From the IMG/VR virus record IMGVR_UViG_2609460125_000009: a stretch of 64,000 nt of DNA; one strand, given 5' to 3'. Below the pieces are notes generated by a model, which was not told where the DNA came from, did not search any database, and saw only the letters and a list, made by a program, of their open reading frames with translations. The position numbers and the translations under genes were made by a program. The stretch's first letter is position 1, and each line of letters starts with the position of its first letter. Below, piece after piece: positions 6,412 through 63,181 of the stretch. The stretch is from a virus. Its lineage: Duplodnaviria > Heunggongvirae > Uroviricota > Caudoviricetes.

Positions 6412-6503
6412 TGTAGAAAAAAATATTTATATCGGTAAAAATAAGTAGGTACATACTTAGTGGTGGGCAAGGATAGCCCACCAAATCAAGGAGCATATTC
6501 AAC

Positions 6504-9500
6504 ATGTGGTACAGGGAAGGTACTATCACATTTACACAGGGCAGCAATACTCTGGTTGGGGCAGGGACAGCCTGGAACGTAACAGCTAATGGTGTGTTGC
6601 CGGGGATGATCGTCATTGGCCCCGACAATAAGCTGTATGAGATCAAGCGCGTAACCAGTGATACGAACATTGTTCTCTCAGAACCTTATACCGGCGAAAC
6701 TCAGTCTGAAGTTCCGTGCCGAATCATTACGACCTATGAAGGCGACTTAACACAGTTTAGCGCGCGCTTTACAGCACTAATGTCGCGTATGTCGGCTGAT
6801 TCCAAGTCCATGCGCAGTTGGTTGACTGCTCTGGATGAGGTGACAATCGAGCGTGAAGACGGTACAGAAGTGACCGTTAAGCCGCTAATGCAGATCGTCA
6901 ACGAGCACAACGAAAACGTTGAGTGGTATAAAAATAACACTGACGCGATTGATGCTGCTGGCGACAAAGCTCGTGAGGCGGCGGCCAGTGCTGCCGCAGC
7001 AGCAGAAAGCGCCAATATCGCTGGAGAAAAAGCCTCTCAAGCGTCTCAAAGTGCATCCGCTGCAGAGTCCTCAAAAAGCGCGGCGGCCACAAGTGCCGGT
7101 GCCGCGAAAACGTCTGAAACGAATGCTGCAGCGTCACAAAAATCTGCAGCCACTTCTGCATCCACCGCGACCACGAAGGCGTCAGAAGCTGCCACCTCAG
7201 CCCGGGATGCGGCGGCCTCAAAAGAGGCAGCGAAATCATCAGAAACGAGCGCAGCCTCGAGCGCCAGTAATGCCGCTTCCTCGGCAACGGCGGCAGGAAA
7301 TTCCGCGAAGGCGGCAAAAACGTCCGAGACGAACGCCAGGTCTTCTGAAACGGCAGCGGGACAGAGCGCCTCGGCTGCGGCAGGCTCAAAAACAGCGGCT
7401 GCGTCGTCTGCCAGTGCCGCGTCAACAAGTGCCGGGCAGGCCTCAGCCAGTGCCACCGCCGCCGGAAAATCGGCAGAAAGTGCCGCATCGTCTGCTTCAA
7501 CAGCCACAACGAAGGCTGGCGAAGCCACTGAACAGGCCAGCGCAGCAGCGAGGTCTGCTTCCGCAGCGAAGACATCCGAAACGAACGCGAAAGCGTCGGA
7601 AACCCGTGCAGAATCCTCAAAAACGGCAGCCGCATCGTCCGCCAGTTCGGCAGCGTCATCGGCATCATCTGCGTCTGCTTCAAAAGATGAGGCGACCAGA
7701 CAGGCGTCAGCAGCGAAGGGCAGCGCCACGACGGCATCCACGAAAGCAACAGAGGCGGCAGGCAGTGCGACGGCAGCATCTCAGAGCAAAACTGCTGCTG
7801 AATCCGCTGCGACCCGTGCGGAAGCTGCTGCTGATCGTGCTGAAGAGATTGCCGGTGCAGTTGCGATGGAAGACGCAAGCCTTACAACTAAAGGTGTTGT
7901 GAAACTTAGCAGTGCTGTCGACAGCACCAGTGAATCGCTGGCCGCAACGCCAAAAGCAGTTAAAGTAGTCAATGACAATGCGAACAGCAGGGTGCCATCT
8001 AACCGAAAAATTAACGGGAAAGCACTGACTGCGGATATCACATTAACGCCGAAAGATATTGGTACTTTAAATTCAATAACGATGTCTTTCTCTGGCGGGG
8101 CCGGGTGGTTCAAACTGGCTACTGTTACAATGCCACAAGCGAGTTCCATCGTTTACATCGCATTGATTGGTGGCGCTGGTTACAACGTCGGCTCCCCACA
8201 TCAGGCAGGCATTTCAGAACTGGTTCTACGAGCAGGCAATGGAAACCCCAAAGGGATTACAGGTGCTTTGTGGAAGCGTACAGCTGTCGGATTAACGAAT
8301 TTCGCCTGGATCAACACATCCGGCGATACATATGATATTTACGTTGAGATTGGCAATTATGCGACTCGTGTAAATATCCATTGGGATTGTACTGCAAATG
8401 CGACAGTTTCTATTTATACATCGCCAACATATTCAGCTAGTAAGCCTTCCAGCGTTACCGATGGTGTTGTTTATACGATGTATAGCACACATCAGAAACC
8501 GACGCCGTTAGATATTGGAGCACTGCCAACAACCGGAGGAACAGTTTCAGGTCCGTTGTCTGTTACTGGTGGGATCACCGGAACATTAAATGGTAATGCA
8601 AGTACAGCAACGAAATTGCAGACGGCAAGATCTATCGGTGGAGTTGGTTTCGACGGTTCTGCAAATATCAACCTTCCAGGTGTAAATACTACGGGTAATC
8701 AGAACACCACTGGTAATGCTGCAACTGCTACAAAACTTCAGACGGCAAGAACTATCGGCGGCGTGAGCTTTGATGGTACTGCGAATATTAATTTGCCAGG
8801 TGTTAATACGACTGGTAATCAGAATACAACGGGCAACGCGGCTACTGCTACGAAGTTGCAGACTGCGCGTACTATCAATGGGGTGTCGTTTGACGGCTCG
8901 GCAAATATTTCCTTGTCGCCAGCAAATATAGGTTGCCCGGCATCTCCTACTGGTTGGTTAACTACAGGAAGTAATGGCGGAGCAATAACAACAGCACAGT
9001 TAGTGACGTTATTGCAAAATAATGGAGCATTTAACACAAAGTCATGGATTGCTCGATGTGCTTGGGCCTATGCCAATAGTGCAACCATACCAAATAGTGA
9101 AACTGGTTGTGGCGTTATTCCATTGGCAGGAGCTGTTATAGAGGTATTTAATAACGGTAGTAGCTCAAACAATTATACGATCCGTATAACAACGGCCACA
9201 ACGACGAGTGTCTCTGGTGCTCTCACTAATGCGGAGTTTATCTATGTATTTAATGGCACAGATTATTCTCCGGGATGGCGAAGAGTATATAACACGAAAA
9301 ACAAACCAACAGCCTCTGATGTCGGTGCATTACCTCTTACCGGTGGTACATTATCTGGAGGTTTGACATCTTCTGGCGAGATCATTTCAAAATATGCAAA
9401 TGGTTTCCGCATTGCTTACGGTAGCTTTGGGTTCTTTATCCGTAATGATGGATCGAACACATATTTCATGCTAACAGCATCAGGAGACACATTAGGTTCA

Positions 9501-10661
9501 TGGAACGGTTTGCGACCAATTACAATTAATAATACCAGCGGTGCTGTATCAATTGGTAATGGACTAAATGTGACTGGTGGCGTAAATGGTAGTTTGAACG
9601 GTAATGCTTCAACAGCTACGAAGTTGCAAACAGCGAGAAACATCAATGGTGTTAAGTTTGATGGCTCAGGCGATATCAACATTAATACATTGGTATCTCG
9701 TGGCCGAGTTACGGCGTTAAGCGGCTCTACTCAAGGCACTGCTGGCATTCAAATGTACGAGGCGTACAACAATAGCTACCCGACCACGTATGGCAACGTA
9801 TTGCACATGAAAGGTGCGAGTGCTGCTGGTGAGGGCGAGTTGCTTATTGGCTGGAGTGGTACGAGCGGTGCACATGCGCCAGTTTTCATTCGCTCACGAA
9901 GAGATACCACAGATGCGGCATGGTCAGCGTGGGCGCAGGTATATACTGCTAAGGATTCAATCCCTGGTGTGAATACAACCGGTAATCAGAATACTACTGG
10001 TAATGCCGCAACAGCCACAAAATTGCAGACAGCAAGGAAAATTGCTGGTGTGGCGTTTGATGGCTCTGCCGATATTACTTTGACTGCGGCTAACCTTAAT
10101 GCTTATACGAAAACAGAGGTAACAAACCTTCTAAGTTCCTATGCAAGCAGATCATCACTGACAGGCTATAGTGGCAACCTGGATATTATTGCTGAAACAC
10201 TGGTTGTCAAATCAGGCGGTAGTGGAGGGTTTGCTATATGGGATATTGGCACAACTACTAGCGGTGCCAATATGTACATTGATCCAAACCCTGGTATCAA
10301 TACAGTTTGGCGTTCAACATCTTCAAGGCGCTATAAAAAGGATATTGAAACATTACAAGATCGATATGCTGATGAACTTTTGTCATTAAGACCTGTTTGG
10401 TATCGTTCAATTTGTCGAGGTGACCGAAAGGATTGGGGGTATTACGGCCTTATTGCTGAAGAGGTTGGTGAGATTGCCCCGCAATATGTCCATTGGCGTG
10501 AACCAACAAATAATGATTCTCCAGAAGATATTTCCTCAAATGGTATGGTCGCTGAAGGGGTGATGTATGAGCGTTTGGTTGTACCACTCATTCATCATAT
10601 TCAGCAATTGACCAAAAGGGTTGAGGAGCTTGAAACGAAGTTAAATTCACCTAAAGAATAA
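6504..10661 (+). CDS. side tail fibre protein with Ala/Ser-rich stalk, fibre repeats and C-terminal S74-type intramolecular chaperone domain
   Basis: 1385-aa ORF with RBS AAGGAG upstream; repeated GNASTATKLQTAR units (lambda Stf-like fibre repeat); C-terminal SSRRYKKDIETL...LRPVWYRS...GLIAEEV region resembles the self-cleaving chaperone of endosialidase-type fibres. Confidence 0.85.
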   Translation: MWYREGTITFTQGSNTLVGAGTAWNVTANGVLPGMIVIGPDNKLYEIKRVTSDTNIVLSEPYTGETQSEVPCRIITTYEGDLTQFSARFTALMSRMSADSKSMRSWLTALDEVTIEREDGTEVTVKPLMQIVNEHNENVEWYKNNTDAIDAAGDKAREAAASAAAAAESANIAGEKASQASQSASAAESSKSAAATSAGAAKTSETNAAASQKSAATSASTATTKASEAATSARDAAASKEAAKSSETSAASSASNAASSATAAGNSAKAAKTSETNARSSETAAGQSASAAAGSKTAAASSASAASTSAGQASASATAAGKSAESAASSASTATTKAGEATEQASAAARSASAAKTSETNAKASETRAESSKTAAASSASSAASSASSASASKDEATRQASAAKGSATTASTKATEAAGSATAASQSKTAAESAATRAEAAADRAEEIAGAVAMEDASLTTKGVVKLSSAVDSTSESLAATPKAVKVVNDNANSRVPSNRKINGKALTADITLTPKDIGTLNSITMSFSGGAGWFKLATVTMPQASSIVYIALIGGAGYNVGSPHQAGISELVLRAGNGNPKGITGALWKRTAVGLTNFAWINTSGDTYDIYVEIGNYATRVNIHWDCTANATVSIYTSPTYSASKPSSVTDGVVYTMYSTHQKPTPLDIGALPTTGGTVSGPLSVTGGITGTLNGNASTATKLQTARSIGGVGFDGSANINLPGVNTTGNQNTTGNAATATKLQTARTIGGVSFDGTANINLPGVNTTGNQNTTGNAATATKLQTARTINGVSFDGSANISLSPANIGCPASPTGWLTTGSNGGAITTAQLVTLLQNNGAFNTKSWIARCAWAYANSATIPNSETGCGVIPLAGAVIEVFNNGSSSNNYTIRITTATTTSVSGALTNAEFIYVFNGTDYSPGWRRVYNTKNKPTASDVGALPLTGGTLSGGLTSSGEIISKYANGFRIAYGSFGFFIRNDGSNTYFMLTASGDTLGSWNGLRPITINNTSGAVSIGNGLNVTGGVNGSLNGNASTATKLQTARNINGVKFDGSGDININTLVSRGRVTALSGSTQGTAGIQMYEAYNNSYPTTYGNVLHMKGASAAGEGELLIGWSGTSGAHAPVFIRSRRDTTDAAWSAWAQVYTAKDSIPGVNTTGNQNTTGNAATATKLQTARKIAGVAFDGSADITLTAANLNAYTKTEVTNLLSSYASRSSLTGYSGNLDIIAETLVVKSGGSGGFAIWDIGTTTSGANMYIDPNPGINTVWRSTSSRRYKKDIETLQDRYADELLSLRPVWYRSICRGDRKDWGYYGLIAEEVGEIAPQYVHWREPTNNDSPEDISSNGMVAEGVMYERLVVPLIHHIQQLTKRVEELETKLNSPKE
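6950..7830 (+). repeat. low-complexity Ala/Ser/Thr-rich coding region of the tail fibre gene
   Basis: Compositionally biased GC-rich stretch that creates long spurious ORFs in all other frames. Confidence 0.7.
8590..8925 (+). repeat. tandem 120-nt (40-aa) fibre repeats (PGVNTTGNQNTTGNAATATKLQTAR...)
   Basis: Near-identical units begin near 8677 and 8797; a further diverged copy lies near 9961-10080. Confidence 0.7.
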
Positions 10662-10721
10662 ACAACTTCAATCGGGGCTGGAACTAAACCAGCCCCTGCT
10701 TAAAAGTATAAGGATATATTT

Positions 10722-11591: not shown

Positions 11592-11825
11592 ATGATGAAA
11601 AGATTATTTCTAACAATAGCTGTTGTTCTCTCTCTTACTGGCTGCCAGAAATTGCCGACACCTATATGTTACGGTGAGGCTATCATTGGTGGACAGGAGA
11701 CAGTCATACCCATATATGCTGTTAAAAAAGTGAACGACTATACCTTATACAAAGCGGGTAGCATCTATAACTGGCGATGGGTAGGAGTAGGTGCTTTCTC
11801 ATCAGTCCGTTGCAATGTTGAATGA
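11592..11825 (+). CDS. small lipoprotein (candidate Cor/Llp-like superinfection exclusion protein)
   Basis: Signal peptide with lipobox LTGC (MMKRLFLTIAVVLSLTGC); 77 aa; sits between fibre genes and the lysis cassette. Confidence 0.5.
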   Translation: MMKRLFLTIAVVLSLTGCQKLPTPICYGEAIIGGQETVIPIYAVKKVNDYTLYKAGSIYNWRWVGVGAFSSVRCNVE

Positions 11826-11906
11826 TAAGTAAGTACACACCTACAACAAGAAGGTGAAATGTGATATAAATCCGCCATCCCGATTTGACTTTTCATGGAG
11901 GAAAAC

Positions 11907-14156: not shown

Positions 14157-14474
14157 GTATTCCTCCTGATGGCCGTGATGTAGGAAGGCCATCAATCTCC
14201 TCTGTTCAAACTGAGTTTTCGACTCAAAAATTACTTTAAAAGGCTATAGCCCATTACGTGTGCATTATCAAATTGTGTACGGCATAACACCGTACTTGTA
14301 ATATAGAGGTCATTGTTACTTTTTTCAACAGACAAATACAAGCTATGATTGCCAATTGTTAATCACAACCTACCATTTAACCTTTACACCGCAGCCGTAG
14401 GCATTTAGGCTATATCACATATAAGAAAACAAGTTGTTTCAGACGATAATTATATACGCAAAGGGAACTCTCCA

Positions 14475-16432: not shown

Positions 16433-16489
16433 GCCTGCTTCTGTATATATAAATAATAAGTAACTTATTAAATATATACGGAAGCAGGT
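16433..16489. repeat. large palindromic element, copy 1 (GCCTGCTTCTGTATATAT-loop-ATATATACGGAAGCAGG)
   Basis: 18-bp arms with one wobble position flank an AT-rich palindromic loop; followed by TCTTTT. The same arms recur at 63797-63855. Confidence 0.6.
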
Positions 16490-16595
16490 CTTTTAAAAGA
16501 CACCACCAGAACAACTCCCTTCCGTTTCCACTTCCAAAAACTGCCACCAGTCGCTATCATCCGCTCATTGTGATAAGTAAGTAACTACCTACCAG

Positions 16596-17345
16596 GTGAG
16601 CCACATGAGCCAAATCTTTTTCGATACCATCGACAACGACCAGTACGACTTCATGACAGAGTGGAATACCGCTGTTATGGACAAGTGGGTCGCTGAAAAC
16701 ATTGGTTTGTCGCGCTGTAAAGACGAGGCTGAACTCTTCGAGACGAAGTGGTTTGATTACCGCGACATGCATCCTCTCATGGCCACCTGTCTTTTTACGG
16801 AGGCATACAAACGTCAGTACTCAAATATCATGCTGACGCACGGTCGCGAACACTTTGAAACAGCTCCGTTCACCACCGGGTTAAAACGCCTGCCTTATCA
16901 GGAGTTGTCGACTGCCAATAAAACGTCGCTATGGAAAGCACGCCAGTTTGCGGATCGCTATTGCTGCTCATACGACTACTTTATCTCCACCGTTCTTTCC
17001 GCAGCTGCACGACGGCTGTGGGACAAGCTGCCGCGCCCACAGCATTTGTGGCAGCCAGAGCTGATTGAGATATTCGAAGAGAAATTAGCCAGACGCGCAA
17101 CAACCCGTCTGGATGACTCTCTCGTTAGCTTTAAGCATATGGGAGACATGCAGTTCAACCCGATTCAGGAAAGCTATTTTGAGTGGATTCTGGAGCGTTT
17201 ACGCACCATCCCCCGCAGCAAGCGCATACGCGCAATTTTCTCCGCTATCTGGCTAATGGAAATCGTTCCAGAGCGCCTTATTTCCGCCCACTTTCCAGAA
17301 GAACTGGAAGAAGCACGGCGGTTTATTGATCCCCTATCTAATTAA
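16596..17345 (+). CDS. hypothetical protein
   Basis: 249-aa ORF in the replication-gene operon; no motif recognised. Confidence 0.5.
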   Translation: MSHMSQIFFDTIDNDQYDFMTEWNTAVMDKWVAENIGLSRCKDEAELFETKWFDYRDMHPLMATCLFTEAYKRQYSNIMLTHGREHFETAPFTTGLKRLPYQELSTANKTSLWKARQFADRYCCSYDYFISTVLSAAARRLWDKLPRPQHLWQPELIEIFEEKLARRATTRLDDSLVSFKHMGDMQFNPIQESYFEWILERLRTIPRSKRIRAIFSAIWLMEIVPERLISAHFPEELEEARRFIDPLSN

Positions 17346-17388
17346 CTAATACTAGAAAACAATTTGTTTAAAAAACAAAGGAAAGCAC

Positions 17389-18729
17389 ATGACCGAACTT
17401 TGCCATACAGGACGCGGGCTGTCCGAAGAGTTTGATGAAGATTTTCAGAACAGATTGACGGCCTATTTTTGTCGTGATCACGAGTTTCTTACTCGTGCTG
17501 GAGATCTGGTTGTACCTAGCCAATTTGCCAATGCGGCCAATGCCATATTGGTTAATATGGTTTCGGGCTATTACCGTATGTACAAGAGCGCGCCCTCTTC
17601 ATCTGCGATTCTGGATATGCTTAAGCGTGCGAAACGCGATAAGACTATCCGTGAGGAACTATTCGCCGATGTTGTTGCTGCGTTTAAGCGCATCCTTGCA
17701 GAAAAATTGTCTGATACCTCGTACATGGTTGACCAGGTATCAACCTTCGCAAAAAGCGTAGCGTTTGATGATGCTCTGATTAAGGCTGCTGAACTGAAAG
17801 AGAAGGGCGACTTTCAGGGGGCGATGGCAATCATGGCCAAGGTTCAGCAGATTGGATCGAACGAAGCGACCGGAATCTATGACTACTACACCTCCGCAAG
17901 TGAGCGATTGAAAGCGCGTGAATATGAGGCTTCAGAGGAGTATGTGCCAAACAGCATTACAACTGGACTCCCTCTGCTCGATAGGTTGCTGTACCAAAAA
18001 GGCTGGGCGAAGCGTGAAATGGTGCTCTTCATGGGGTTCGCTAAATCCGGTAAATCGACCGCAATGGGTGAGTTTTCCATAAACGCAACGCTTGCTGGCT
18101 ACAATGTTCTGTATCTCTCGCTGGAGGTTCACACCACCATTTTATCCGACCGTTTTGATGCAAGATTGTCGGAGACAGAAATGTCCAAGCTGGTGGAACG
18201 GCGCGATGAGGTTCATCGTAAGTTGGCAGAGTTGGGAGCCACGAAGGGGATTGGTAGTTTGTGGGTTGTTGAGCGTCCGTCAGGAAGTATGTCACCGGCA
18301 GATCTGGACCGTATGCTTAACAGCATGAAAGCCAATGGCATGGTGCCTGACATGGTTGTTGTCGACTACGCAGATTTGATGCGTGCCAGTTATGACCTTC
18401 GTGATGATCGCGCCAACATTCGTAGTATCTACACCGATTTACGTGCTCTTTATGACAAGCATAACGTTGCTGGGATCACGGCATCGCAGACAAACCGTGA
18501 AGGTGGCGCGTCAGAAGTTGCCACAATGATGCACGCTGCCGACAATATCGAAAAAGTACGTATTGCTGACCTGGTAATAACGATCAACAAAACCGAAGAA
18601 GAAGAAGCGAAAGGAGAGGCTCGTCTCTACTTTGCTGGTTCACGTAACCAGCAGGGAGGGATCAGCATTCGCGTTAAACAAAACCTCGAACAAATGCGCT
18701 TCATTGAGCGAATCTTAGACGTTACCTAA
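17389..18729 (+). CDS. DnaB-like replicative DNA helicase
   Basis: Conserved leader AAAGGAAAGCACATG; Walker A GFAKSGKST in a RecA-like C-terminal domain; LDRLL...GW motif typical of DnaB-family helicases. Confidence 0.8.
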   Translation: MTELCHTGRGLSEEFDEDFQNRLTAYFCRDHEFLTRAGDLVVPSQFANAANAILVNMVSGYYRMYKSAPSSSAILDMLKRAKRDKTIREELFADVVAAFKRILAEKLSDTSYMVDQVSTFAKSVAFDDALIKAAELKEKGDFQGAMAIMAKVQQIGSNEATGIYDYYTSASERLKAREYEASEEYVPNSITTGLPLLDRLLYQKGWAKREMVLFMGFAKSGKSTAMGEFSINATLAGYNVLYLSLEVHTTILSDRFDARLSETEMSKLVERRDEVHRKLAELGATKGIGSLWVVERPSGSMSPADLDRMLNSMKANGMVPDMVVVDYADLMRASYDLRDDRANIRSIYTDLRALYDKHNVAGITASQTNREGGASEVATMMHAADNIEKVRIADLVITINKTEEEEAKGEARLYFAGSRNQQGGISIRVKQNLEQMRFIERILDVT

Positions 18730-28063: not shown

Positions 28064-30172
28064 ATGTCTAAAAAACGTTCCATCAAAGAGGTTCAGGACT
28101 TCCGTGACAGTGTAAAACGAGTAGTCGCTCTCCTTTCAGGTAAAAACATCCCTGTTGCAGAACGAGGGGACGACGCTTATGTACGCTATAACGATGATGG
28201 AGAGCCAATTCTCGTAAACATCCCATCAATCCCGGATAACGCAACACCGGCATTGATGAATGCTGTGCGCGGATTTCTCGATCATGAGGTTGCTCACATT
28301 TTGTTTACCGATATTCGTGTGTCCAACAAAATGAGAGAAAAAGGACGCGTTCCTTCCTGGTCGCTATGGAATGCCTTAGAAGACGTGTTCATCGAGCGAA
28401 AAATGGGTCAGGTCTTTAACGGAACAAGACGTAATCTGATGGCAACTCAGCGCCTTATAATCGAAAAAGTCTTTAAACCAAAGGCTTCAGAGGCTATTGC
28501 TTATTGTGGCAAAGATCAGCGCGCGCTTTTTCTAAACTTCTTTCTCTGTCCGGTTGTAAGAGCCTGGGATGGCCAAGCACCGTTCGTAGATTTCATGGAT
28601 GAATATTGGCCTGTCATTGAGAAACCAATTTCATTATTAAAAGAACATGGTATCGATGTGGCCGTGCGTAACATGTCTTGCACCGAGGATTGTGTAAAGG
28701 TGGCTGCGACCATAGCTAAGATCCTCAAAGACACTGAAAGTGAAAGCAAAGGTAAGGAGTCAGCTCCGGGAAAAACTTCCGATCCTTCAGACGCTGACCA
28801 GACGGATGCCTCTGGAGAAAACAATGAAGACAACGAAGATCATGAGACACCCTCAGCGTTAGATAATCACAAATCTATCAAATCAGAATCACACAGTAAG
28901 CACAAACATGATAATAACGACGGTGATGATTCAGATAATTCTGAATCATCAGAAACAATATTCGATGATACAGAAAATGATAAAGAGGTATCAGATTCTG
29001 ATGCTTCTGATAACGCGGTGTCAGAATCATTTACCGCTGACCACGAAAAAAGAAAAACGACAGAAGACGGCTCTTCAGATATCCCAACTCCGTCAAAAAT
29101 GAGTCTGGAAGAGGCTTTAGAGGAGCTGGATAGCATAGAAGATGAAGTCGGAGGCATGACAGAAGATGCTCTATCCGAAACGATTAAAAGCGAGTTAACA
29201 GAAACCTCGAAAAGCGAATACAGGCCATACAATCGCTCATACGACTTCATCGGCTCGATTGATCAGGCAGAAGCCCATATCAAACGGCTTATTAAAACAT
29301 TCTCCGATATTGATTTAGGAGGATATCCAATCAGCCGCTATCGCATCGTTCCTGAAGGCAACCAGCTCTTCGACAAATATATTGAAAAGCATCTTTCGTC
29401 AGGTGTTTCGTCGACGCTGGCAAAAGACCTGGAGCGAGCAATAGCAAGCAGAAACAGAGTTCAGTTTATACCGGGCCAGCGTCGGGGGCGCATTCATGGT
29501 TCTAGTATCTACAGATTAGCAATGAATGATGATCGCGTGTTTCGTAAAAAAGAAGAATCTAAAGCCGTTAACGCCTGTGTTCAGCAAGTGATTGATTTAT
29601 CAGGTTCAATGAGTGGTATAACGATACAATTGGCTCTTGCAAGTGCATATACCATCGCCGATGCCCTTGATCGAATAAATGTTCCCAACATTATCACCGG
29701 CTTCACTACATTTGGTAGTCATATGGCGGCAGGAGAACTTAAGGCTGTCAAGTATGAGTTCTCTCGCTTTGAATCTTTAATGCTACCTATCATCAAAAAT
29801 TGGAATGAAAAGGTAAATTCTCGCGAAGTTCGCTCACGTATGGGGTGCGTAGGCTACACATTCCCACTTCTTAATAACGTGGATGGTGAAAGCATAGCCA
29901 GCCTTGCATCGTTATTTTCCGGTCGCATGGAGGACAGGAAGATCATGCTTGTTCTGAGTGATGGCGCGCCGTGGGCTGTTGGGAGAGGTTTTGACGCTCA
30001 TTTGCGTTCGGTTGCGAAGCAAATTGAAACGCAGACTGACATTGATTTGATGGCAATTGGCATCATGACTGACGCACCGGAGAGATTATACTCAAATCAT
30101 GCCCTGGTAACGAGCGTTGATAGTCTTGGTTCATCTGTAGTTACTGAACTATCTCGTATCATTTTAAAGTGA
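28064..30172 (+). CDS. von Willebrand factor A domain protein (CobT-like), with acidic central region
   Basis: C-terminal MIDAS motif DLSGSMSG; very acidic Asp/Glu/Ser-rich middle; N-terminal DHEVAH motif; followed by a MoxR/CobS-like AAA+ gene. Confidence 0.75.
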   Translation: MSKKRSIKEVQDFRDSVKRVVALLSGKNIPVAERGDDAYVRYNDDGEPILVNIPSIPDNATPALMNAVRGFLDHEVAHILFTDIRVSNKMREKGRVPSWSLWNALEDVFIERKMGQVFNGTRRNLMATQRLIIEKVFKPKASEAIAYCGKDQRALFLNFFLCPVVRAWDGQAPFVDFMDEYWPVIEKPISLLKEHGIDVAVRNMSCTEDCVKVAATIAKILKDTESESKGKESAPGKTSDPSDADQTDASGENNEDNEDHETPSALDNHKSIKSESHSKHKHDNNDGDDSDNSESSETIFDDTENDKEVSDSDASDNAVSESFTADHEKRKTTEDGSSDIPTPSKMSLEEALEELDSIEDEVGGMTEDALSETIKSELTETSKSEYRPYNRSYDFIGSIDQAEAHIKRLIKTFSDIDLGGYPISRYRIVPEGNQLFDKYIEKHLSSGVSSTLAKDLERAIASRNRVQFIPGQRRGRIHGSSIYRLAMNDDRVFRKKEESKAVNACVQQVIDLSGSMSGITIQLALASAYTIADALDRINVPNIITGFTTFGSHMAAGELKAVKYEFSRFESLMLPIIKNWNEKVNSREVRSRMGCVGYTFPLLNNVDGESIASLASLFSGRMEDRKIMLVLSDGAPWAVGRGFDAHLRSVAKQIETQTDIDLMAIGIMTDAPERLYSNHALVTSVDSLGSSVVTELSRIILK

Positions 30173-30267
30173 ACAAAACAGCCTTAACGATAAGTAACCA
30201 CTTACGATAGATAATGATATATTTATATAAGAAGTTGAACGCTCATTAGAAAACAAAGGAAAAACGC

Positions 30268-31503
30268 ATGACTACTACTGCACTGCAAAATGAAAACAAT
30301 CCTTCTGATTACCTTGTTTGCAAGTGGTGCGGAAAATCATTTCACTATTTTAAGTCCCATGTTGCCAATGGTAATTGCGAGGGCATTCCTGAGTCAGTAA
30401 AAGATGCCGATCCTGACACCGTACTGAAAATGTACACAACACAGTTTCCAGATGAGCCAACGCTATCGAAAAAGGCACTTGATGCAATTCAAGCTAAACG
30501 TGCCGAGCAAAAAAGCGAAATGGCCAAATCATCTGGCGTGACCAGTAGCCCAGGCTACACAGGCACAGTTGAGTACAAGACAGATCTGGTCGCAGCTCAC
30601 GAACTGCTAAATGTAACGGTGAAAGAACTCGGAACAAAACGTGGGACGCCGCTCATGGTTAGCGTCAACGTCAATACGCCGTTTCCAGAGTTCGTTCCAG
30701 AAGTGAAGAAGGGATACGTATATGGCGACTTCGAACTGATCAAAGACATTTTCATGATGCTTGAACTTGGCATACCTGGCTATTTGTGGGGTCATGCAGG
30801 AACAGGCAAATCGTCATTGCCTACACAACTATGTGCTTTGCTCAATCGTCCGTTGATCCGTGCCCAACATACAGCATCAATGGAAGAGGCACATGTTACG
30901 GGGCAAATTCTGGCGCGTGATGGCTCTACGTATTTCGAGCCTGGCTTGCTTGCGCTCGCAATGAAGCATGGCTGGGTTTACCTCGCGGATGAATACGACT
31001 TTGCGTTTCCACAAATTCTTGGCGTGTATCAGCCAGTGCTGGAAGGTGAAGCGTTAGTCATCAAAGAGGCGACTCCAGAATGGCGTCGCATTACTCCGCA
31101 TGAACGGTTTGCTTTCATTGGCACTGGCAACACGAACGGATCTGGTGATGAAACCGGCTTGTACCAGGGTACAAACATCCAGAACGCCGCGAACTTTTCG
31201 CGTTTTGGCATCGTTTCGAATGTGAAATACATGAGCAAAGAGGCAGAGATCAACATGTTGATAAATGCCGGTATCGTGGATGAATACGCAGAAAAGATGG
31301 TTAAGTTTGCCGGTATCGTTCGCGATGGATACGAAGAACACCTTATCAGTCAGCCAATTGGCCCTCGTGAACTTTTGTTGTCGGCCAAGATTGGAATGAT
31401 GCGAGGCGACTTTGTGACAGGTATTGAGCGTTCTTTCATTAACAAACTCCCTTCAGCTTCTGCACAAGCGGCTCGTGAAGTTGTTCAAAAAATATTTGGT
31501 TGA
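30268..31503 (+). CDS. AAA+ ATPase of the MoxR/CobS type with N-terminal Cys-rich extension
   Basis: Conserved leader AAAGGAAAAACGCATG; Walker A GHAGTGKSS, Walker B LADEYD; N-terminal CKWCG...H...C cluster. Confidence 0.8.
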   Translation: MTTTALQNENNPSDYLVCKWCGKSFHYFKSHVANGNCEGIPESVKDADPDTVLKMYTTQFPDEPTLSKKALDAIQAKRAEQKSEMAKSSGVTSSPGYTGTVEYKTDLVAAHELLNVTVKELGTKRGTPLMVSVNVNTPFPEFVPEVKKGYVYGDFELIKDIFMMLELGIPGYLWGHAGTGKSSLPTQLCALLNRPLIRAQHTASMEEAHVTGQILARDGSTYFEPGLLALAMKHGWVYLADEYDFAFPQILGVYQPVLEGEALVIKEATPEWRRITPHERFAFIGTGNTNGSGDETGLYQGTNIQNAANFSRFGIVSNVKYMSKEAEINMLINAGIVDEYAEKMVKFAGIVRDGYEEHLISQPIGPRELLLSAKIGMMRGDFVTGIERSFINKLPSASAQAAREVVQKIFG

Positions 31504-35505: not shown

Positions 35506-35721
35506 TCAGCTTAGAGCAACGACATTTGCTGCTGCTGGGCCTTTAGCCCCATTCTCGATAGAGAATTCGACCTGCTGGCCTTCTTCCAAAGTGCGGAAAT
35601 TATTACTCTGAATTGCCGAAAAATGTACAAAAACATCTTTACTGCCATCAGCAGGAGAAATAAAGCCAAAGCCTTTATCAGAGTTAAACCATTTTACTAA
35701 ACCAGTCATTTTATTAGACAT
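35506..35721 (-). CDS. cspA: cold-shock protein, CspA family
   Basis: [21 protein letters not shown]...DVFVHFSAI matches the cold-shock domain RNP motifs; ATG at 35721 has an AAGGT RBS, although the ORF is open further upstream. Confidence 0.85.
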
Positions 35722-36050
35722 AGATATTACCTTCTTAATTTTGTGAGCCACATAGTGCGGCGAGAATTTGATCTGTATAGATTGGGACTTACTTAGGCAC
35801 TTAAGGAGGAGACTCACGAAGAAGGGAAATCAGAAGATAACACTGAACTGAGACTGCTTTACTAAAACTGCTTACATAAGGTCTGTCTTGCAAACCAACG
35901 ATGCTATTAACGCATACCCCTTCTTTTCATGCAACCTTTATTTTTCAAAGATAACTAATTTTTGTCACCATTGGTTTAGTAAACGTTAACGAACCAGACG
36001 ATGCCAGACACCTTTACAGAGAACAGATGCCCGCCAATTGGCGGGCATCA

Positions 36051-37585: not shown

Positions 37586-37702
37586 TTTTTGATAGATAAT
37601 AAGTAAGTACTGATCTATCATTTAACAGCTCGAAAGAGCCACGAATGAACGAAAGCCCAACGCGCATAGCGCCATCGGCCAAATCACAACAAGGAGAAAC
37701 AC

Positions 37703-42348: not shown

Positions 42349-42374
42349 AAGGCGTCCACAGGACGCCTTTTTTA
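42349..42374 (+). terminator. rho-independent terminator
   Basis: GGCGTCC-ACA-GGACGCC followed by TTTTTT after the recombinase stop. Confidence 0.8.
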
Positions 42375-42437
42375 TCTCTTGAAAATATATAAGTGCTTAC
42401 TTATCATTTTTCACATAACAACCACATAGGAAAACAC

Positions 42438-42638
42438 ATGATCAAAATCTATCTATTGGCAGTAGCCACAGGCCTTTCAGTGGCTCTCATCTACGGATTA
42501 CTGGTTCCGTCGCTGATTTCTGCAAAGAGTGATTTGGCCGTCATGCTTGGAGTTCTCGTTGGTTTTGGCGCTCCAGTAATCGGTCTTATTGGTGGTCGTA
42601 AGTTTATTAACTCATTAATCAAAGCAAAGGGGAAATAA
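42438..42638 (+). CDS. small membrane protein (two predicted transmembrane helices)
   Basis: Conserved leader GGAAAACACATG; 66 aa, hydrophobic; directly upstream of the SPFH gene. Confidence 0.45.
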   Translation: MIKIYLLAVATGLSVALIYGLLVPSLISAKSDLAVMLGVLVGFGAPVIGLIGGRKFINSLIKAKGK

Positions 42639-43514: not shown

Positions 43515-43563
43515 TCGCAATTATCTTATTAAGAAAACAATTTGTTTAAAAGGATAAGAAAAC

Positions 43564-43989: not shown

Positions 43990-44044
43990 TCGCCTATTCA
44001 TAACTACCAAAATAAGTAAACACTAACCACAAAAGGAAAAACAC

Positions 44045-45093: not shown

Positions 45094-45573
45094 CACTGCG
45101 GTGAGTAGCCAGCTCACCGCATTCGTATCAGCTCATTATCCACTGTGGTCTGCAGTCCTCTCTTCCTACATATCTGCTAACCACTGTAGCGAGTAGACAG
45201 CCTTTCATTCGCATCAAACAACCACTATGGTGAGTATTGGAGTGAGATGTACAGCGGGTATCCACTATGGTGAGTAAGCCTTTGCTGTTTTCAGTGGATA
45301 TCCACTCGCCACAGTGGATACGCTCAAAGATGAGGGCGACAACAACCACTATAGACAGTAAATTTTCCAAGATACCCAGTGACCACTAACCTCGCAGCCC
45401 TTGTTTCATCAGTGTTAGTGATCACTAACATTTGATTCAGTATTTGCATTCTACTGCCTACAGTGGTTATCAACAGATAACGATACTCACTATAGTGGAT
45501 AGCGAATTACAGATATAAGTAAGGCTCACTACAGTGGATAGTGAGCCTTACTACTAACTACAGTGGTTGGGCT
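45094..45573. repeat. iteron-like repeat cluster (about 12 copies of CCACTrTGG / CTAyAGTGG cores in both orientations)
   Basis: Examples: ccactgtggtctg 45140, aaccactatggtgagta 45221 and 45261, cactatagtggatagcg 45488, ctacagtggata 45528; lies at the 3' side of the initiator gene. Confidence 0.6.
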
Positions 45574-46627
45574 ATTTGCGAGTCTTTGCCTTGCGCAACT
45601 CTTCGAGAAGCGCCAGTTCTTCTTTACTCAACATGACCATTTTGCCTTCTTTTTCGTCAGGCACAACGTCGATAATGTCATCTTGATTCTCATCTGGGAG
45701 GCTATATTCCGTCTCATCATTATCGATTTTTGTTGATATTTGTGCCTGGCGTAACTTTGGCCGCCTATAGTGGATGACGAAGTAGACCGAGTTTCCGCGC
45801 TTAACTTCCGTGTAATCGAGATATCCTATCTCTCGCAGCTGTTCCATAGCCTTTCTTACCGTCGCATTCTGAGTAATAGTGCGACTTGTCAGATTAAGTC
45901 TGGCGCGTAAACGGGCTAGTGATATTGGTGCCGGATCAGGCGGCAAACTTTCAATAAAAGTATAAAGCGCCTGAGCGGATTCTTTTCTTGAGAGTTCGTT
46001 TATAGCCCGGAGTTGCAGAAGAACCTTTTTGTCGAACTGGTAGAGTTCGAAAATCTTGGGATCTGCTTTCAGTTCGACCGTATCGTGCTTGACACTATAT
46101 TTTGCCGTTTGCACAAGATGCGTTACGTAAAACTCATCAGAGCCTTTGCTACGGAACGAGATGGTATTTGTGGCAATACGGCTTAGCGAACTGTCCAGGC
46201 GTTTGCGTAACTTCGCTGATGACCTGGCGGTCGGAATGCCACACAGCCTTACAAACTCAACGAACGGCAACGTGACAGTATCGCCAACGACCTTGTGTTT
46301 GGCAAACGCGTGGATTATTCCCACCCACGTTTTAAAGTCGTTATCCATATCAAGCCGAAGGCCAGAGATCCTTATGTCTTCGTACCCTTCGGCTTTTGCC
46401 AGAGACAGCTGTTTGAGTTCAGCAGAGGCATCCATAGAGACCATTTGCCCCTTTCTTCCTCTGGATGTCGATTTCAGCGTCGGAACGAAGAGGCCCAGAC
46501 GCATCAAAGCAACAGGCTGAACAGTGTTATTAGTGTTAGGAACCAACGTAACAACTTCGCCTGTCTTTTTATCTGTTTCTGAAAATGCTTCAACGATCGC
46601 TATGTTTTTATTGCCGTTTTCGCTCAT
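45572..46627 (-). CDS. replication initiator protein (RepA/Rep_3-like, iteron-binding)
   Basis: 351-aa minus-strand ORF flanked on both sides by 21-bp-spaced direct repeats; charged C-terminus; assignment rests mainly on context and overall resemblance to plasmid RepA-type initiators. Confidence 0.55.
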
Positions 46628-46672
46628 TCCAAATGTCTCTTGTTATTCGACGGCTTTGGTGGCCTTTGCTGA

Positions 46673-47300
46673 TTACAGTGGATAGTAGCACTCATCACAG
46701 CGGTTATCCTACCGTCTATAGTGGTTTTTCTCCTCTCTATAGTGGTTGCTTTGCTCCCTATAGTGGATTATTCGCTCTCTATAGTGGATATCGATCATGT
46801 CTGAAGGCAGATGGCGCAACGGTTTGAGGTGGGCGGGGATCTTATTGGGTCTTTATGGGTCTCTTTGGTTCTCTTTGTGATCTGAATTACTGGATCGGGC
46901 CTGTGGATAAAAATCAGAGGATTTCAAGAACAGGTAACTCTACTCTTCTGTGGATATTTAAGGACATAAGAATCATGACTAAGAGTAGAGTTTAAAATAT
47001 ATCTATGTATATCAGTATGTTAATGAAGAATTAAGTCATTAAGTTATCCATAAAAGACAATGTGCTCTACTCTCTACAGTGGATATATACAGCTCTCCAG
47101 AGTGGTTGTTTTACTCTTCATAGCGGTTATTCAGCTCTCTACAGAGGTTTCTTTGCTCTCCATAGTGGATGGCAACACCCTTTCAGACCAGTAACCGCAA
47201 CGGCTAGAGGCGATCGGGGATCTCTTTGGATCTTCTATTTGATCTTACTTGGGATCTCTTATTTGGATCTATCCAGTGGATAACTGGGATAAGTAAAACA
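46673..47300. promoter_or_regulatory. candidate origin of replication: two iteron arrays, DnaA boxes, AT-rich block and GATC clusters
   Basis: Direct repeats CTCTATAGTGGwT at 46714, 46735, 46756, 46777 and at 47072, 47095, 47116, 47137, 47158 (21-22 bp spacing); perfect DnaA box TGTGGATAA at 46902-46910 and 8/9 matches near 46950 and 47044; AT-rich 46920-47060; five GATC in 47216-47270. Confidence 0.6.
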
Positions 47301-52813: not shown

Positions 52814-52886
52814 TCTCATTGATAGGTAAGTGCTTATCTATTAACATGGGCCACTAAATATAGTGGCCCTCTTTATTTGGTGATAC

Positions 52887-55235: not shown

Positions 55236-55302
55236 ATTTGTAAGCCTTGTTTAAACACATAAGATAACAACTTGTTTAAACACATCAAAAAAGGAAAAAC
55301 AC

Positions 55303-56445
55303 ATGTCATATTCAACGTTCCGTTTGGGTGCTAATGATGCAACCAAAGAGCCTATGTTCCTCGGACAATCTGTCAACGTGGCACGTTACGATCAGCAAAA
55401 ATACCGTGATTTTGAAAAGTTGATTGAACGTCAATTGTCTTTCTTCTGGCGGCCGGAAGAAGTTGATATTTCGAGTGATCGTATCGACTTCAACACGAAG
55501 CTGCGGGACCACGAACGTCACATTTTTCTGAGCAATCTCCGTTATCAAACGTTACTCGATTCAGTTCAGGGACGTAGCCCAAATGCAACGCTTCTGCCGC
55601 TTATCTCTATTCCTGAACTGGAAACGTGGGTTGAAACATGGTCTTTCTCTGAGACTATCCATAGCCGCAGCTACACCCACATTATTCGTGGCATGGTGGA
55701 CGATCCGAGTATTGTTTTTGACGGTATTGTTACGGATGAAGAAATCATCAACCGAGCGATCAGTATCTCTGCTGAATATGACAGGCTTTATGGGATGACC
55801 TGCGAGCGCCAGTCGTTAGGTGAGAAAGAGTTTGAACGTCTGTACGTAAATGAATATGGCTGGGAGCCATACCCTTTGCACCGTCAGCTTTTCCGCACGT
55901 TGGTGTCCATTAATGCGCTTGAGGCGATCCGTTTCTATGTAAGTTTTGCATGTACGTTTGCCTTTGGCGAACGGAAGTTGCTTGAGGGTAACACCAAAAT
56001 TATGCGCTTTATTGCCCGTGATGAAGCTCTGCATTGCGAAGGAACTGAACGCATGATCCGCTTCATGCGTACCGGTCGCGAAGGCTTATTGTGGAAAGAG
56101 ATTGCTGCTGATGAAGAAAACGTCATTTACGACACCATGAAATCAGTCGCCGAACAAGAAATGAACTGGGCAGACTATCTCTTCAAAGACGGTTCGATGA
56201 TTGGTTTAAACGCGGATATTCTGAAGACCTATGTAAAATACCGCACCAATCTGGCTATGAATCGTCTTGGCCTGAAGGCTTTATTTCCAGAAGTTACCAC
56301 AGATCCGCTGGTCTGGATGAACAAGTGGTTGTTAACCGACACACTGCAAATTGCACCACAAGAGGCAGAGCAAAGCACATATCTGGTAGGTCAGATCGAT
56401 TCTACCGTGGATAAGGCTTCTCTAAGCCAGTTTGCAGACCTGTAA
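55303..56445 (+). CDS. nrdB: ribonucleoside-diphosphate reductase class Ia beta subunit
   Basis: Conserved leader AAAGGAAAAACACATG; collinear with E. coli NrdB as I recall it ([30 protein letters not shown] motifs). Confidence 0.9.
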
Positions 56446-62998: not shown

Positions 62999-63073
62999 CG
63001 TCCCCCTACTGAAAATAAAGCCCATAGAGAGCTTTATAGTGCTGGGTAAGCCAATCACATACCCAGCACCACA

Positions 63074-63122
63074 AAAACGCGCCAGAGAGCTTCTCGTTTG
63101 CATTTCTGGCGCGTTTTATTTG
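63074..63122 (+). terminator. rho-independent terminator
   Basis: AACGCGCCAGA-loop-TCTGGCGCGTT followed by TTATTT. Confidence 0.7.
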
Positions 63123-63181
63123 ATTGCCAGACATAAAATCAAATGCAAAAATAGGTAATCACTTACCTATCGAGAAAGAAG

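Follow-up and report, generated by a model that had tools for sequence, protein, structure and literature searches.

Dispersed 20-bp palindromes in an SSU5-like phage-plasmid are probable operators of its own Cro/CI-type repressor

The window, the whole 64,000-nt stretch of viral DNA analysed here, belongs to an SSU5-like (SSU5-type) phage-plasmid with ca. 98% identity to the E. coli phage Cyrano/pLF82. A 20-bp palindrome is dispersed over this element, preceding nearly all of its lytic gene blocks, and we consider it probable, at roughly 0.6, that its copies are operators of the element's own Cro/CI-type (XRE) repressor, encoded on the minus strand at 27115–27501. An autoregulated global repressor with dispersed operators, as put forward in the original prediction, is supported by comparison, and the dyad symmetry of the motif, its overlap with promoters, the copy at the XRE promoter, expression in the lysogen, and co-variation among relatives all fit it. 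No account of a dispersed-operator system in SSU5-type phage-plasmids was found in the searchable literature.

The motif consensus is a perfect 20-bp palindrome composed of the halves ATAAGTAAGT and ACTTACTTAT, with TA steps spaced 4 bp apart. The sequence GATAAGTA occurs nine times in the window against 1.46 expected, and ATAAGTAA occurs 17 times against 1.8 expected, which ranks second in over-representation among 8-mers, behind Chi. Allowing up to three mismatches, the 20-mer has six matches against 0.00 expected. With up to four and up to five mismatches, there are 13 and 18 matches, compared with 0.01 and 0.21, respectively, in 200 dinucleotide shuffles. Scanning with a weight matrix built from SSU5 and Klebsiella sites alone yields 18 matches of at least 10 bits in the window against 0.22 expected. 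Nearly all 20-mer matches fall in the intergenic 9.5% of the window. The motif is present at all 14 predicted locations, with a few starts shifted by 1–8 nt. The predicted position just 5′ of genes also holds, as the sites lie 1–112 nt from the start codons of downstream plus-strand genes, except for the site at 23529, which heads a non-coding and tRNA region. The 14 strong sites in their best 20-mer registers, followed by two weaker candidates, are given below; all are strand-neutral.

6441–6460: candidate operator ATAAGTAGGTACATACTTAG, 43 nt 5′ of the tail-fibre gene (6504); 3 mismatches; 20.9 bits; Cyrano, SSU5, and pMT1 carry orthologues
11825–11844: candidate operator 5′ of the holin/lysis operon (11895); 22.1 bits; extended −10 TGATATAAA ca. 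17 nt 3′ of the motif
16573–16592: candidate operator immediately 5′ of the gene at ca. 16596–16605 (Shine-Dalgarno sequence and start), the head of the helicase/primase block; 21.0 bits
20007–20026: candidate operator 5′ of gene 20068; 24.5 bits; conserved extended −10-like TGTAAGAAT 5 nt downstream, placing the motif at about −40 to −21
20884–20903: candidate operator directly against the 5′ end of gene 20906 (ligase operon); 17.6 bits
23529–23548: candidate operator, best match in the window (2 mismatches); 26.8 bits; heads a long conserved non-coding region and tRNA cluster; TATAAGAT 8 nt downstream; hypervariable patch of 5–6 nt directly 5′
30190–30209: candidate operator with a weaker right half, 5′ of the CobS-like AAA gene (30268); 10.3 bits; orthologous in four genomes
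37599–37618: candidate operator 5′ of the gp32-like SSB gene (37703); 31.0 bits; TAGATA-17-TATCAT places the motif at −29 to −10
42385–42404: candidate operator within TTGAAA-17-TATCAT (42379–42407), just past a terminator (42349–42369); heads the small membrane protein/SPFH operon; 28.8 bits
44339–44358: candidate operator overlapping TTTACA-17-TAGTAT, motif at −18 to +1; ATG 1 nt past the motif; TTTACA kept in four genomes; 24.2 bits
48138–48157: candidate operator 5′ of sbcD (48270); 28.0 bits; extended −10 TGnCATAAT 6 nt downstream in relatives
52822–52841: candidate operator within TTGATA-17-TAACAT (52819–52847), 5′ of nrdA; terminator-like hairpin (52848–52869) directly 3′; 28.2 bits
57528–57547: candidate operator 6 nt 5′ of the thyX Shine-Dalgarno sequence (GTG at 57563); 21.6 bits
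63151–63170: candidate operator 11 nt 5′ of the adenine methylase gene (63182); 26.8 bits
57391–57410: weaker candidate AATTGTAGGTAGTTATCTAT; 12.9 bits; weak SSU5 orthologue at 72357
44012–44031: weak candidate, left half only, 5′ of gene 44045; 11.0 bits; the orthologous SSU5 position (57746) carries a better site

We then inspected the symmetry of the motif. At all ten pairs of mirror positions, Watson-Crick complementarity equals the expectation for independence. The two halves thus vary independently, which points to a protein dimer reading duplex DNA rather than to a hairpin. One way to parse the 20-mer is as two TAAG-N6-CTTA units of 14 bp that interdigitate with an offset of 4 bp, and such a unit has the 4-6-4 layout typical for Cro/CI-type dimers. 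Outside the XRE-promoter site, the outer ATA/TAT are the best-conserved positions.

The sites are associated with promoters directed at the downstream genes. Only 20 plus-strand sigma-70-like matches exist in the whole window, and they overlap five of its 14 sites; in four further site sets, the overlaps are 8/20, 11/22, 10/23, and 8/15. The corresponding minus-strand overlaps in the five sets are 0, 0, 3, 1, and 1. Hence, ca. 40% of the sites overlap sigma-70-like promoters pointed at downstream genes. Relative to these promoters, the motif occupies −32 to −13, −29 to −10, −18 to +1, or −8 to +11. This variation of register within the RNA polymerase footprint fits occlusion rather than activation. 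A promoter was sought at several sites (thyX, dam, and terL–portal) and none was identified there, which counts against the repressor reading.

The proposed binder and its control region comprise three features.

27115–27501, minus strand: XRE/Cro-CI-type HTH protein of 128 aa (CYRAN_45), weak Pfam match to HTH_19
27548–27575, minus strand: promoter-like TTTACA-16-TAATAT for the XRE gene, the sole sigma-70-like match in 27300–28100
27530–27549, strand-neutral: weak, core-only candidate operator TCTGGTAAGTGCTTACCGAT covering the start site predicted for the XRE promoter; 9.5 bits

The protein has the five-helix HTH fold of the Cro/CI type. In its AlphaFold2 model the recognition helix spans residues 41–47, and Foldseek matches include C.BclI, C.AhdI, HigA, SinR, 434, and P22 c2. 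Pfam detects no S24 autocleavage domain. The palindrome predicted beside the XRE gene, GGTAAGTGCTTACC, is present at 27533–27546, one position from where it had been placed, and matches only the inner 12–14 bp of the motif. It lacks the outer ATA/TAT, and its TAAG/CTTA spacing is N2 instead of N6, which counts against the repressor reading. This core block is kept in Klebsiella pJN2-26 amid an otherwise diverged spacer, and is also present in pMT1 and in the P0032 variant. XRE occurs in 865 plasmid records, whose taxon spread equals that of a core gene found in 758, and the XRE-integrase module belongs to the core of SSU5-type plasmids. In the Cyrano lysogen, XRE is expressed 10-fold above background, and the motif-headed genes are absent from the list of expressed genes (PMC9928086).

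Comparison with relatives demonstrates that the sites are orthologous across Cyrano, SSU5, Klebsiella pJN2-26, and Y. pestis pMT1 despite DNA identity of only ca. 75%. The 5′ flank of a site can be entirely swapped while the site and the downstream sequence stay unchanged; in 34 IMG/VR loci with the 20007 site, the 5′ flank is wholly diverged and the motif with everything downstream is kept. In two lineages, the dispersed motif switches type in concert with the XRE control-region sites and with the beginning of the XRE recognition helix. Sites of the form ATCAGTCAGTACTGACTGAT number 31 in an Acinetobacter element, whose XRE control region has three TCAG-type copies and whose helix begins K-R-P-N-V compared with K-N-A-N-N here (N39 to R). 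The metagenomic relative L103 has the helix start E-R-P-N-V and four TCAG-N6-CTGA sites against 0.26 expected. Conversely, the XRE of Klebsiella strain 148 plasmid unnamed3 (NZ_CP125183.1) is only 48% identical and thereby as diverged as those of the TCAG-type relatives, yet N-A-N-N and the TAAG motif are both kept. Against the repressor reading stands the P0032 variant with helix K-Y-Q-N-Q, in which the left halves of the dispersed sites drift towards GTATGTATGT while the XRE-promoter site is still of TAAG type. Photorhabdus also speaks against it: Lys at XRE position 39 occurs there together with a motif of TAAG type, so that this residue by itself does not determine specificity. The R-type lineages possibly share one ancestor, in which case the co-variation represents few independent events. 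SSU5 has the full site set but no XRE homologue was found in it, which counts against the repressor reading; we infer that SSU5 is a lytic deletion variant.

Binding by another regulator of the element, with the XRE promoter merely one of its targets, is possible but unlikely. Candidate binders are a winged-helix protein of 88 aa whose gene immediately precedes terS, or some small protein that has escaped recognition, and the role of such a binder might be that of a lytic-cycle switch, Cro-like or dual in function, instead of the lysogeny repressor. Retention of all sites in SSU5 without XRE and the atypical XRE-promoter site favour this explanation, as does the conservation of the 88-aa protein, whose operon is headed by a site, in SSU5, Klebsiella, pMT1, and Acinetobacter. 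However, this protein has no Pfam family, and its putative recognition helix (KQxxQFSIRxLIK) is kept in Acinetobacter and hardly differs between elements of the TAAG and TCAG types, in contrast to the start of the XRE helix, which changes. A 71-aa candidate is absent from Acinetobacter, and it is XRE whose transcription in the lysogen is known (PMC9928086). A smaller chance still is given to a positive-control element that replaces the −35 hexamer and lets a phage activator recruit RNA polymerase. The T4 MotA box, the P1 Lpa late-promoter repeat, and Mu C sites are precedents, and the sites of g34, g91, sbcD, and holin have only a −10 or extended −10, 5–20 nt downstream, without −35, the motif being centred near −30 or −41. 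An absent activator would equally explain why motif-headed genes are unexpressed in the lysogen (PMC9928086). Elsewhere, however, the motif is flanked by a good −35 and −10 (TTGAAA-17-TATCAT) or spans the −10 and start (TTTACA-17-TAGTAT), where no activator could operate. The distance from motif to −10 also differs between orthologues (8 vs 14 nt and 20 vs 9 nt), and the XRE promoter has a copy over its start site.

It is very improbable that the motif serves DNA metabolism, be it as a site for ParB_N proteins (clamp loading as in KorB/ParB), a recombination hot spot at module boundaries, or a replication/packaging cruciform. Two ParB_N proteins are encoded in a site-headed operon, RK2 KorB provides the precedent of a ParB-family protein with dispersed palindromic sites, and sites coincide with mosaic junctions and the hypervariable patch. 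But Pfam shows no HTH domain in the ParB_N proteins, the sites are linked to promoters that point at genes, and the complementarity of the arms is not maintained, making a cruciform or hairpin unlikely. We give least credence to a family-specific sigma-70 consensus that needs no dedicated protein and uses TATcAT (positions 18–23) as −10. Positions 18–23 do resemble TATCAT, the 3 nt upstream are A-rich, and many sites overlap promoter-like matches. Nevertheless, conservation is mirror-symmetric and includes the half without a promoter role, the switch from TAAG to TCAG affects both halves in Acinetobacter, which is beyond sigma-70 recognition, and some sites lie too near for a leader carrying the conserved Shine-Dalgarno sequence. 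The half-site TATAAGTA, originally suggested as a reiterated −10 element, is not enriched in the window (4 against 1.3 expected, with 4 reached in 3 of 100 shuffles), and that suggestion is not upheld.

Among known systems, P1 is a plasmid prophage whose single immunity repressor C1 has many unlinked operators at operon heads and at its own gene. The present element shares the plasmid prophage state, one proposed repressor, and sites at separate operon heads and at the repressor's own gene. P1 operators are 17-bp and asymmetric and C1 is not of the XRE type, whereas the present element has perfect palindromes of 20 bp and a candidate protein with the Cro/CI-type fold. P1 controls its structural and lysis operons indirectly via Lpa, whereas sites here also precede such operons. 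As neither protein nor operator is homologous, the predicted likeness to P1 C1 is one of mechanism, not of family. The lambdoid, 434, and P22 CI/Cro systems share the Cro/CI-type HTH, dyad-symmetric operators with the unit T(A/C)AG-N6-CT(T/G)A (434 operators have the 4-6-4 layout), and a repressor gene divergent from lytic genes with a site at its own promoter. Their operators are clustered in one immunity region, whereas those proposed here are dispersed over ca. 85 kb, XRE has no S24 domain, and each site appears to hold two interdigitated units. KorB of IncP RK2 (with KorA) likewise uses palindromic operators dispersed over a large plasmid to silence many operons together. KorB is a ParB-family protein with an HTH and a 13-bp site, whereas the ParB_N proteins here have no detectable HTH, nor is the motif related. 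Cluster A mycobacteriophages (L5, Bxb1), some of them extrachromosomal, have 20–30 dispersed repressor sites, many of which occupy short gaps between genes; promoter operators are found among them alongside sites without promoter association, and motif and repressor co-vary by lineage, defining immunity groups (PMC6550527). Site number and dispersal, short gaps, partial promoter association, and motif-repressor co-variation are all alike here. The Cluster A stoperators are 13–14 bp, without dyad symmetry, and oriented with transcription (PMC6550527), whereas the present sites are symmetric, ca. 40% or more lie over recognisable promoters, and the proteins are unrelated.

Under the repressor reading, we infer that XRE dimers, two per site, would occupy ca. 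20 sites per genome in the plasmid (lysogenic) state, including the 14 strong ones in the window, each being the head of a lytic transcription unit or a short gap within a long operon. Where a site covers a sigma-70 promoter (spacer, −10, start site, or −35 region), bound repressor would exclude RNA polymerase; directly before a ribosome-binding site, it may act as a roadblock to read-through. The weaker core-only copy over the start site of the repressor promoter would confer negative autoregulation. One small repressor would thereby silence the whole virus during its plasmid life.

The dispersed palindromic motif of the original prediction exists: it was found at all 14 positions listed there, and its copies are almost all intergenic, precede genes, and are far more numerous than expected. 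GATAAGTA occurs 9 times in the window with 1.46 expected, and ATAAGTAA occurs 17 times with 1.8 expected, an over-representation among 8-mers second only to that of Chi. The half-site TATAAGTA, offered in the prediction as a -10-like element, shows no enrichment (4 vs 1.3). A de novo EM motif search of the window's intergenic DNA had these same sites as its best seeds. Early unconstrained EM runs drifted to T-rich low-complexity solutions; stricter runs and an independently trained matrix were used. Refinement led to TGATAAGTAAGTACTTACTTATTT, of which the core halves ATAAGTAAGT and ACTTACTTAT form a perfect 20-bp palindrome with a TA step each 4 bp. With up to 3, 4, and 5 mismatches, this 20-mer occurs 6, 13, and 18 times in the window, compared with 0.00, 0.01, and 0.21 expected. 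A weight matrix trained on SSU5 and Klebsiella sites only and then applied to the window recovers 14 of the 14 predicted sites, and gives 18 matches of at least 10 bits (0.22 expected). Nearly all of the matches fall in intergenic DNA, which is 9.5% of the window. As predicted, the sites lie 5' of genes, 1–112 nt before a + strand start codon. The one exception is site 23529 (sites are named by the start coordinate of the 20-mer copy), which stands at the head of a conserved non-coding/tRNA region.

The palindrome is unlikely to act as a folded structure. Among 58 distinct sites from three genomes, complementarity of mirror positions equals the expectation for independence at 10 of 10 pairs. 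Positions 4 and 17, for example, have 24 complementary pairs vs 25.6 expected, and a purine at position 4 and a pyrimidine at position 17 are each tolerated without the other. This lack of co-variation between mirror positions led to the rejection of a hairpin, a cruciform, and an RNA stem; independent variation of half-sites is the manner in which a protein dimer reads duplex DNA. The conservation profile is mirror-symmetric, and the flanks are A/T-rich. Arm pairs are enriched at spacings 2, 6, and 10, because the 20-mer consists of two TAAG-N6-CTTA units interdigitated at a 4-bp offset. The unit is itself enriched (5 vs 0.84), and the single N6 unit is the sole form present in a distant relative. 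T(A/C)AG-N6-CT(T/G)A units are enriched too, and they have the inverted-repeat form of an operator of a Cro/CI-type repressor. It is very likely that the sites are operators for a dedicated dimeric regulator.

The window has ~98% identity to Escherichia phage Cyrano, which is the phage-plasmid pLF82 of E. coli LF82, and ~77% identity to Salmonella phage SSU5. According to the Cyrano annotation, the gene order from 5' to 3' is tail genes, lysis, partition, replication, the tRNA/integrase/XRE region, and cobT/cobS/dnaE, followed by recombination genes, repA with iterons, sbcCD, nrdAB, thyX, and adenine methylase. Almost every lytic gene lies on the + strand. About 20 copies of the iterons CTATAGTGGAT / ACAGTGGATA at 45137-47290 lie on both sides of repA (45572-46627, minus strand), and this region is the plasmid replication origin. 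Chi (GCTGGTGG) has 15 copies in the window, split 8 and 7 between the + and minus strands (e.g., 1732, 2824, 14739, 18189, 22394, and 53399), vs ~1.4 expected under a first-order model, and it is likewise strongly enriched in Klebsiella pJN2-26 (27 copies). At 35481-35899 on the minus strand, the cspA thermoregulator 5'UTR (Rfam RF01766) is matched over its full length with 185.7 bits, which indicates a putative cold-shock protein moron with an RNA thermosensor. ARAGORN predicts four tRNAs at 24295-24992 (Asn, Tyr, Thr, and Ser), compared with three in the Cyrano record (Asn, Thr, and Ser). The translation-initiation context (A)GGAAAAACACATG is strongly reiterated at many start codons (e.g., 17375-17391, 30255-30270, 42425-42440, and 55290-55305), and GAAAACACAT is the top-enriched 10-mer in a Klebsiella relative (9 vs 0.11).

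Complete genomes of five elements, including Cyrano, SSU5, pJN2-26, and Y. pestis pMT1, have 19–31 sites each, and 14 strong sites fall in the window. In pJN2-26, GTACTTAC is the top-enriched 8-mer (26 vs 1.3). The sites are orthologous between genomes, including those of the structural cluster in the terL-portal gap, at the 3' end of the portal gene, and before tail genes; one orthologous site precedes a parB-like operon. The accessory region at ~85-105 kb has no site. At gene 20068, the DNA 5' of the site takes three unrelated forms among 34 IMG/VR relatives, while the site and everything 3' of it are conserved. The 5-6 nt directly 5' of site 23529 (23523-23528) are hypervariable, with at least 17 variants among 33 loci (L005-L037) and an almost invariant surrounding 160 bp; site 20007 has a similar variable stretch on its 5' side. 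The variability at 23523-23528 may stem from promoter tuning, from a mutational hot spot, or from a recombination junction.

We then compared the sites with sigma-70-like matches, which were called by a re-implementation of the scan tool's promoter rule (the tool's own output covered 41.5-53.5 kb). The whole 64-kb window has 20 + strand matches, and they overlap 5 of the 14 sites. The corresponding + strand overlaps are 8 of 20 sites in Cyrano, 11 of 22 in SSU5, 10 of 23 in pJN2-26, and 8 of 15 in pMT1, whereas the minus strand has none in the window or Cyrano, three in SSU5, and one each in pJN2-26 and pMT1. At least 36–53% of the sites overlap promoter-like matches. A palindrome alone cannot give this strand asymmetry, and hence the sites coincide with promoters aimed at the downstream genes. 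The registers of motif and promoter are listed below.

Registers of the motif at promoter-like matches
42379-42407, + strand: TTGAAA-17-TATCAT; the motif occupies the spacer and the first half of the -10
37593-37621, + strand: TAGATA-17-TATCAT; same register as at 42379-42407
nrdA, + strand: promoter-like TTGATA-17-TAACAT; the motif is at -32 to -13
44339, + strand: TTTACA-17-TAGTAT; the motif is at -18 to +1, and the -35 is conserved in four genomes
20007, 48138, and their relatives: the motif is at about -40 to -21, upstream of extended -10 elements

The distance from motif to -10 differs between orthologues (8 vs 14 nt, and 20 vs 9 nt), and all observed registers place the bound protein inside the RNA polymerase footprint. 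An activator could not act from the spacer or across the start site; the sites probably exert negative control. Promoter-sized room between the motif and the conserved Shine-Dalgarno is absent at thyX (57528), dam (63151), 16573, and, in the relatives, terL-portal. At these sites, the bound protein may serve as a roadblock, or there may be an unrecognised promoter. The gaps at the terL-portal, dam, thyX, and g31 sites are ~30 nt, with the Shine-Dalgarno immediately 3'. A hairpin directly follows the site at nrdA, tail L, the gene of a tail Ig-like protein, and the tail-fibre gene, and the hairpins after sites before tail genes show compensatory changes between genomes. The nrdA hairpin is a full terminator-like one (52848-52869, GGGCCACTA...TAGTGGCCC plus a T-run). 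Its 5' arm contains the predicted start site, so it would stop upstream read-through and spare transcripts started at the site.

Aside from this motif, the window has another dispersed palindrome, AAAACAAnTTGTTTA, with ACTAG or ATAAG in front of most copies, which occurs 5 times vs 0.75 expected (14426-14440, 17356-17370, 28031-28045, 43534-43548, and 55264-55278). They are 20-40 nt upstream of the start codons of parA, helicase, cobT, gene 43564, and nrdB, and a palindrome of this type is also enriched in a Klebsiella relative (AACAAGTTGT). A role as a second operator, or as a translational operator, is possible. An inverted repeat of ~58 bp, CCTGCTTCTGTATATATAAATA...TATATACGGAAGCAGG, followed by a T-rich tail, is present at 16434-16492 and 63799-63853, with further copies in Cyrano (~31.2, 78.1, and 108.3 kb), SSU5, and pJN2-26. 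Its ends are GC-clamped and its centre is AT-rich and operator-motif-like; possible roles are a bidirectional terminator and a cis site of some other kind.

The candidate binder is XRE, a 128-aa protein encoded at 27115-27501 on the minus strand (CYRAN_45). Its Pfam HTH_19 match is weak (E = 7.8e-4, under the curated cut-off). The AlphaFold2 model has a pLDDT of 83-88 for residues 11-80, and contains helices 12-23, 28-35, 41-47 (the recognition helix), 55-65, 69-80, 82-91, 98-111, and 117-127. The top Foldseek matches are the restriction-modification controllers C.BclI and C.AhdI, HigA, SinR, 434 repressor, and P22 c2. The DNA-binding domain, as modelled, has the five-helix Cro/CI (HTH_3/HTH_19) fold. 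Pfam found no Peptidase_S24 in the protein, i.e., no autocleavage domain like that of lambda CI. The XRE promoter, TTTACA-16-TAATAT (27575..27548, minus strand), is the only sigma-70-like match in 27300-28100. The related palindrome predicted at the 5' end of the XRE gene, GGTAAGTGCTTACC, is indeed present (27533-27546), but its similarity to the motif is limited to the inner part, with a score of 9.5 bits. It begins one base past the -10, which places it over the predicted XRE start site. The block is kept in Klebsiella amid an otherwise diverged spacer, and is kept too in pMT1 and another variant; such a partial, low-scoring match would be in keeping with low-affinity autoregulation. Transcription of CYRAN_45 in the Cyrano lysogen is 10-fold over background, and the genes expressed there include no motif-headed one (PMC9928086).

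No XRE homologue was found in phage SSU5. We dropped this as evidence against XRE binding, since the XRE-integrase pair turned up in 865 plasmid records. Its genus distribution is the same as that of a core gene (758 records), and SSU5 is thus the exception. SSU5 (NC_018843.1 42597-42760) lacks the whole block of window ~24990-28060, which comprises glutaredoxin, CYRAN_43, integrase, XRE, and a 70-aa ORF, and is present in Cyrano, pMT1, and the relatives from Klebsiella and Acinetobacter. SSU5 was isolated through its plaques and is plausibly a repressor-less lytic deletion derivative.

The A. baumannii relative NZ_CP035046.1 has the same gene order and a different palindrome with 31 sites, ATCAGTCAGTACTGACTGAT; here TCAG replaces TAAG in both tetramers of both halves. 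The placement of these sites is of the same kinds as before, the terL-portal gap included; three of the TCAG type lie between the XRE gene and a divergent small ORF, and a fourth lies before cobT. The start of the XRE recognition helix changes along with the motif.

Start of the XRE recognition helix and motif type
E. coli (window): G-Y-K-N-A-N-N-L-S-L; TAAG motif
Acinetobacter NZ_CP035046.1: G-F-K-R-P-N-V-L-S-M; TCAG motif
L103, a metagenomic relative (36% identity, same synteny): G-Y-E-R-P-N-V-L-T-M; TCAG-N6-CTGA
Klebsiella strain 148 plasmid unnamed3, NZ_CP125183.1 (48% identity): N-A-N-N retained; TAAG motif

In L103, TCAG-N6-CTGA has 4 sites vs 0.26 expected, all intergenic. As the 48%-identical Klebsiella XRE retains both N-A-N-N and the TAAG motif, the motif type tracks the helix rather than overall divergence. 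The proposal that XRE physically binds and represses the sites rests on this co-variation of helix start and motif type. The test is weakened by Photorhabdus, which has K at position 39 and yet a TAAG-type motif, by the mixed pattern of P0032, and by the R-type lineages, which may be one clade. In the 20 kb examined of P0032 (helix K-Y-Q-N-Q), half-sites drift to GTATGTATGT while the XRE-promoter site is still of the TAAG type, and this helix variant, considered as a decisive test, gave an ambiguous result.

Other proteins were considered as binders. The 88-aa winged-helix protein encoded before terS, the other conserved DNA-binding candidate, has a putative recognition helix, KQxxQFSIRxLIK, that is almost unchanged in Acinetobacter. 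The 71-aa CYRAN_37 (22867-23082) was rejected, since no homologue exists in the Acinetobacter element, where the same system is present. The two ParB_N proteins, considered as KorB-like binders, match PF02195 only, with no HTH found. CYRAN_114/SSU5_121, annotated as 'transcriptional regulator', is by Pfam an FljA-like flagellin repressor and not relevant, and CYRAN_98, encoded elsewhere in Cyrano, is a UmuD-like S24 peptidase lacking a DNA-binding domain. Three further sequences were set aside as well: a Thauera plasmid match is conjugative and no relative, L105 is a defence island, and L086, which has similar palindromes close to the terminase gene, belongs to an unrelated phage.

Our main reading, with a probability of about 0.6, is that XRE, bound at ~20 dispersed operators, would keep the lytic genome silent in the plasmid state, and would regulate its own synthesis through the weak site on its promoter. 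A wider reading that joins all of the following is doubtful. A single XRE repressor would silence the whole SSU5 supercommunity (SSU5/pHCM2, pKpn, pMT1, and Acinetobacter AB elements), binding as two dimers per site on interdigitated 14-bp operators at a 4-bp offset and acting both as promoter occluder and as elongation roadblock. The one-residue change of N39 to R at the helix start, coupled to a TAAG-to-TCAG switch in all operators, would define separate immunity groups, and the hypervariable 5-6 nt by site 23529 would reflect ongoing selection on operator-flanking promoter strength.

The classic P1 C1 operator consensus is asymmetric and 17 bp long. The analogy to P1 C1 drawn in the original prediction holds for the mode of working, i.e., multiple unlinked operators (14 strong ones in the window) under one putative immunity repressor, but not for operator form or protein family: the 20-bp operator here is symmetric and the candidate has an XRE fold. 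The protein type and the 4-6-4 operator unit resemble those of Cro/CI (434-like) repressors, whereas lambdoid operators are clustered rather than dispersed, and XRE lacks an S24 domain. KorB of RK2 is a functional analogue with an unrelated protein. In site number, short-gap placement, and repressor-motif co-variation, the system is similar to the operator/stoperator system of Cluster A mycobacteriophages; Cluster A stoperators are 13-14 bp, without dyad symmetry, and oriented with transcription, unlike the symmetric sites here (PMC6550527).

No description of the motif was found in the searchable literature, and it may have been described earlier; nor does that literature describe the mode of silencing of this family. 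SSU5-type phage-plasmids, which include Y. pestis pMT1 and S. Typhi pHCM2, are among the commonest large plasmids of clinical Klebsiella, E. coli, Enterobacter, and Salmonella. The wider reading, if true, would make their system a symmetric enterobacterial counterpart of the mycobacteriophage stoperators. With an operator, a candidate repressor, and a predicted regulon of ~20 sites, the question of the inducer becomes directly testable, as do mutual immunity between elements of defined operator type (TAAG vs TCAG) and the reason for the lytic behaviour of SSU5, which has kept the operators and lacks the repressor. The motif also provides a simple sequence marker by which these elements could be typed and non-lysogenic derivatives engineered.
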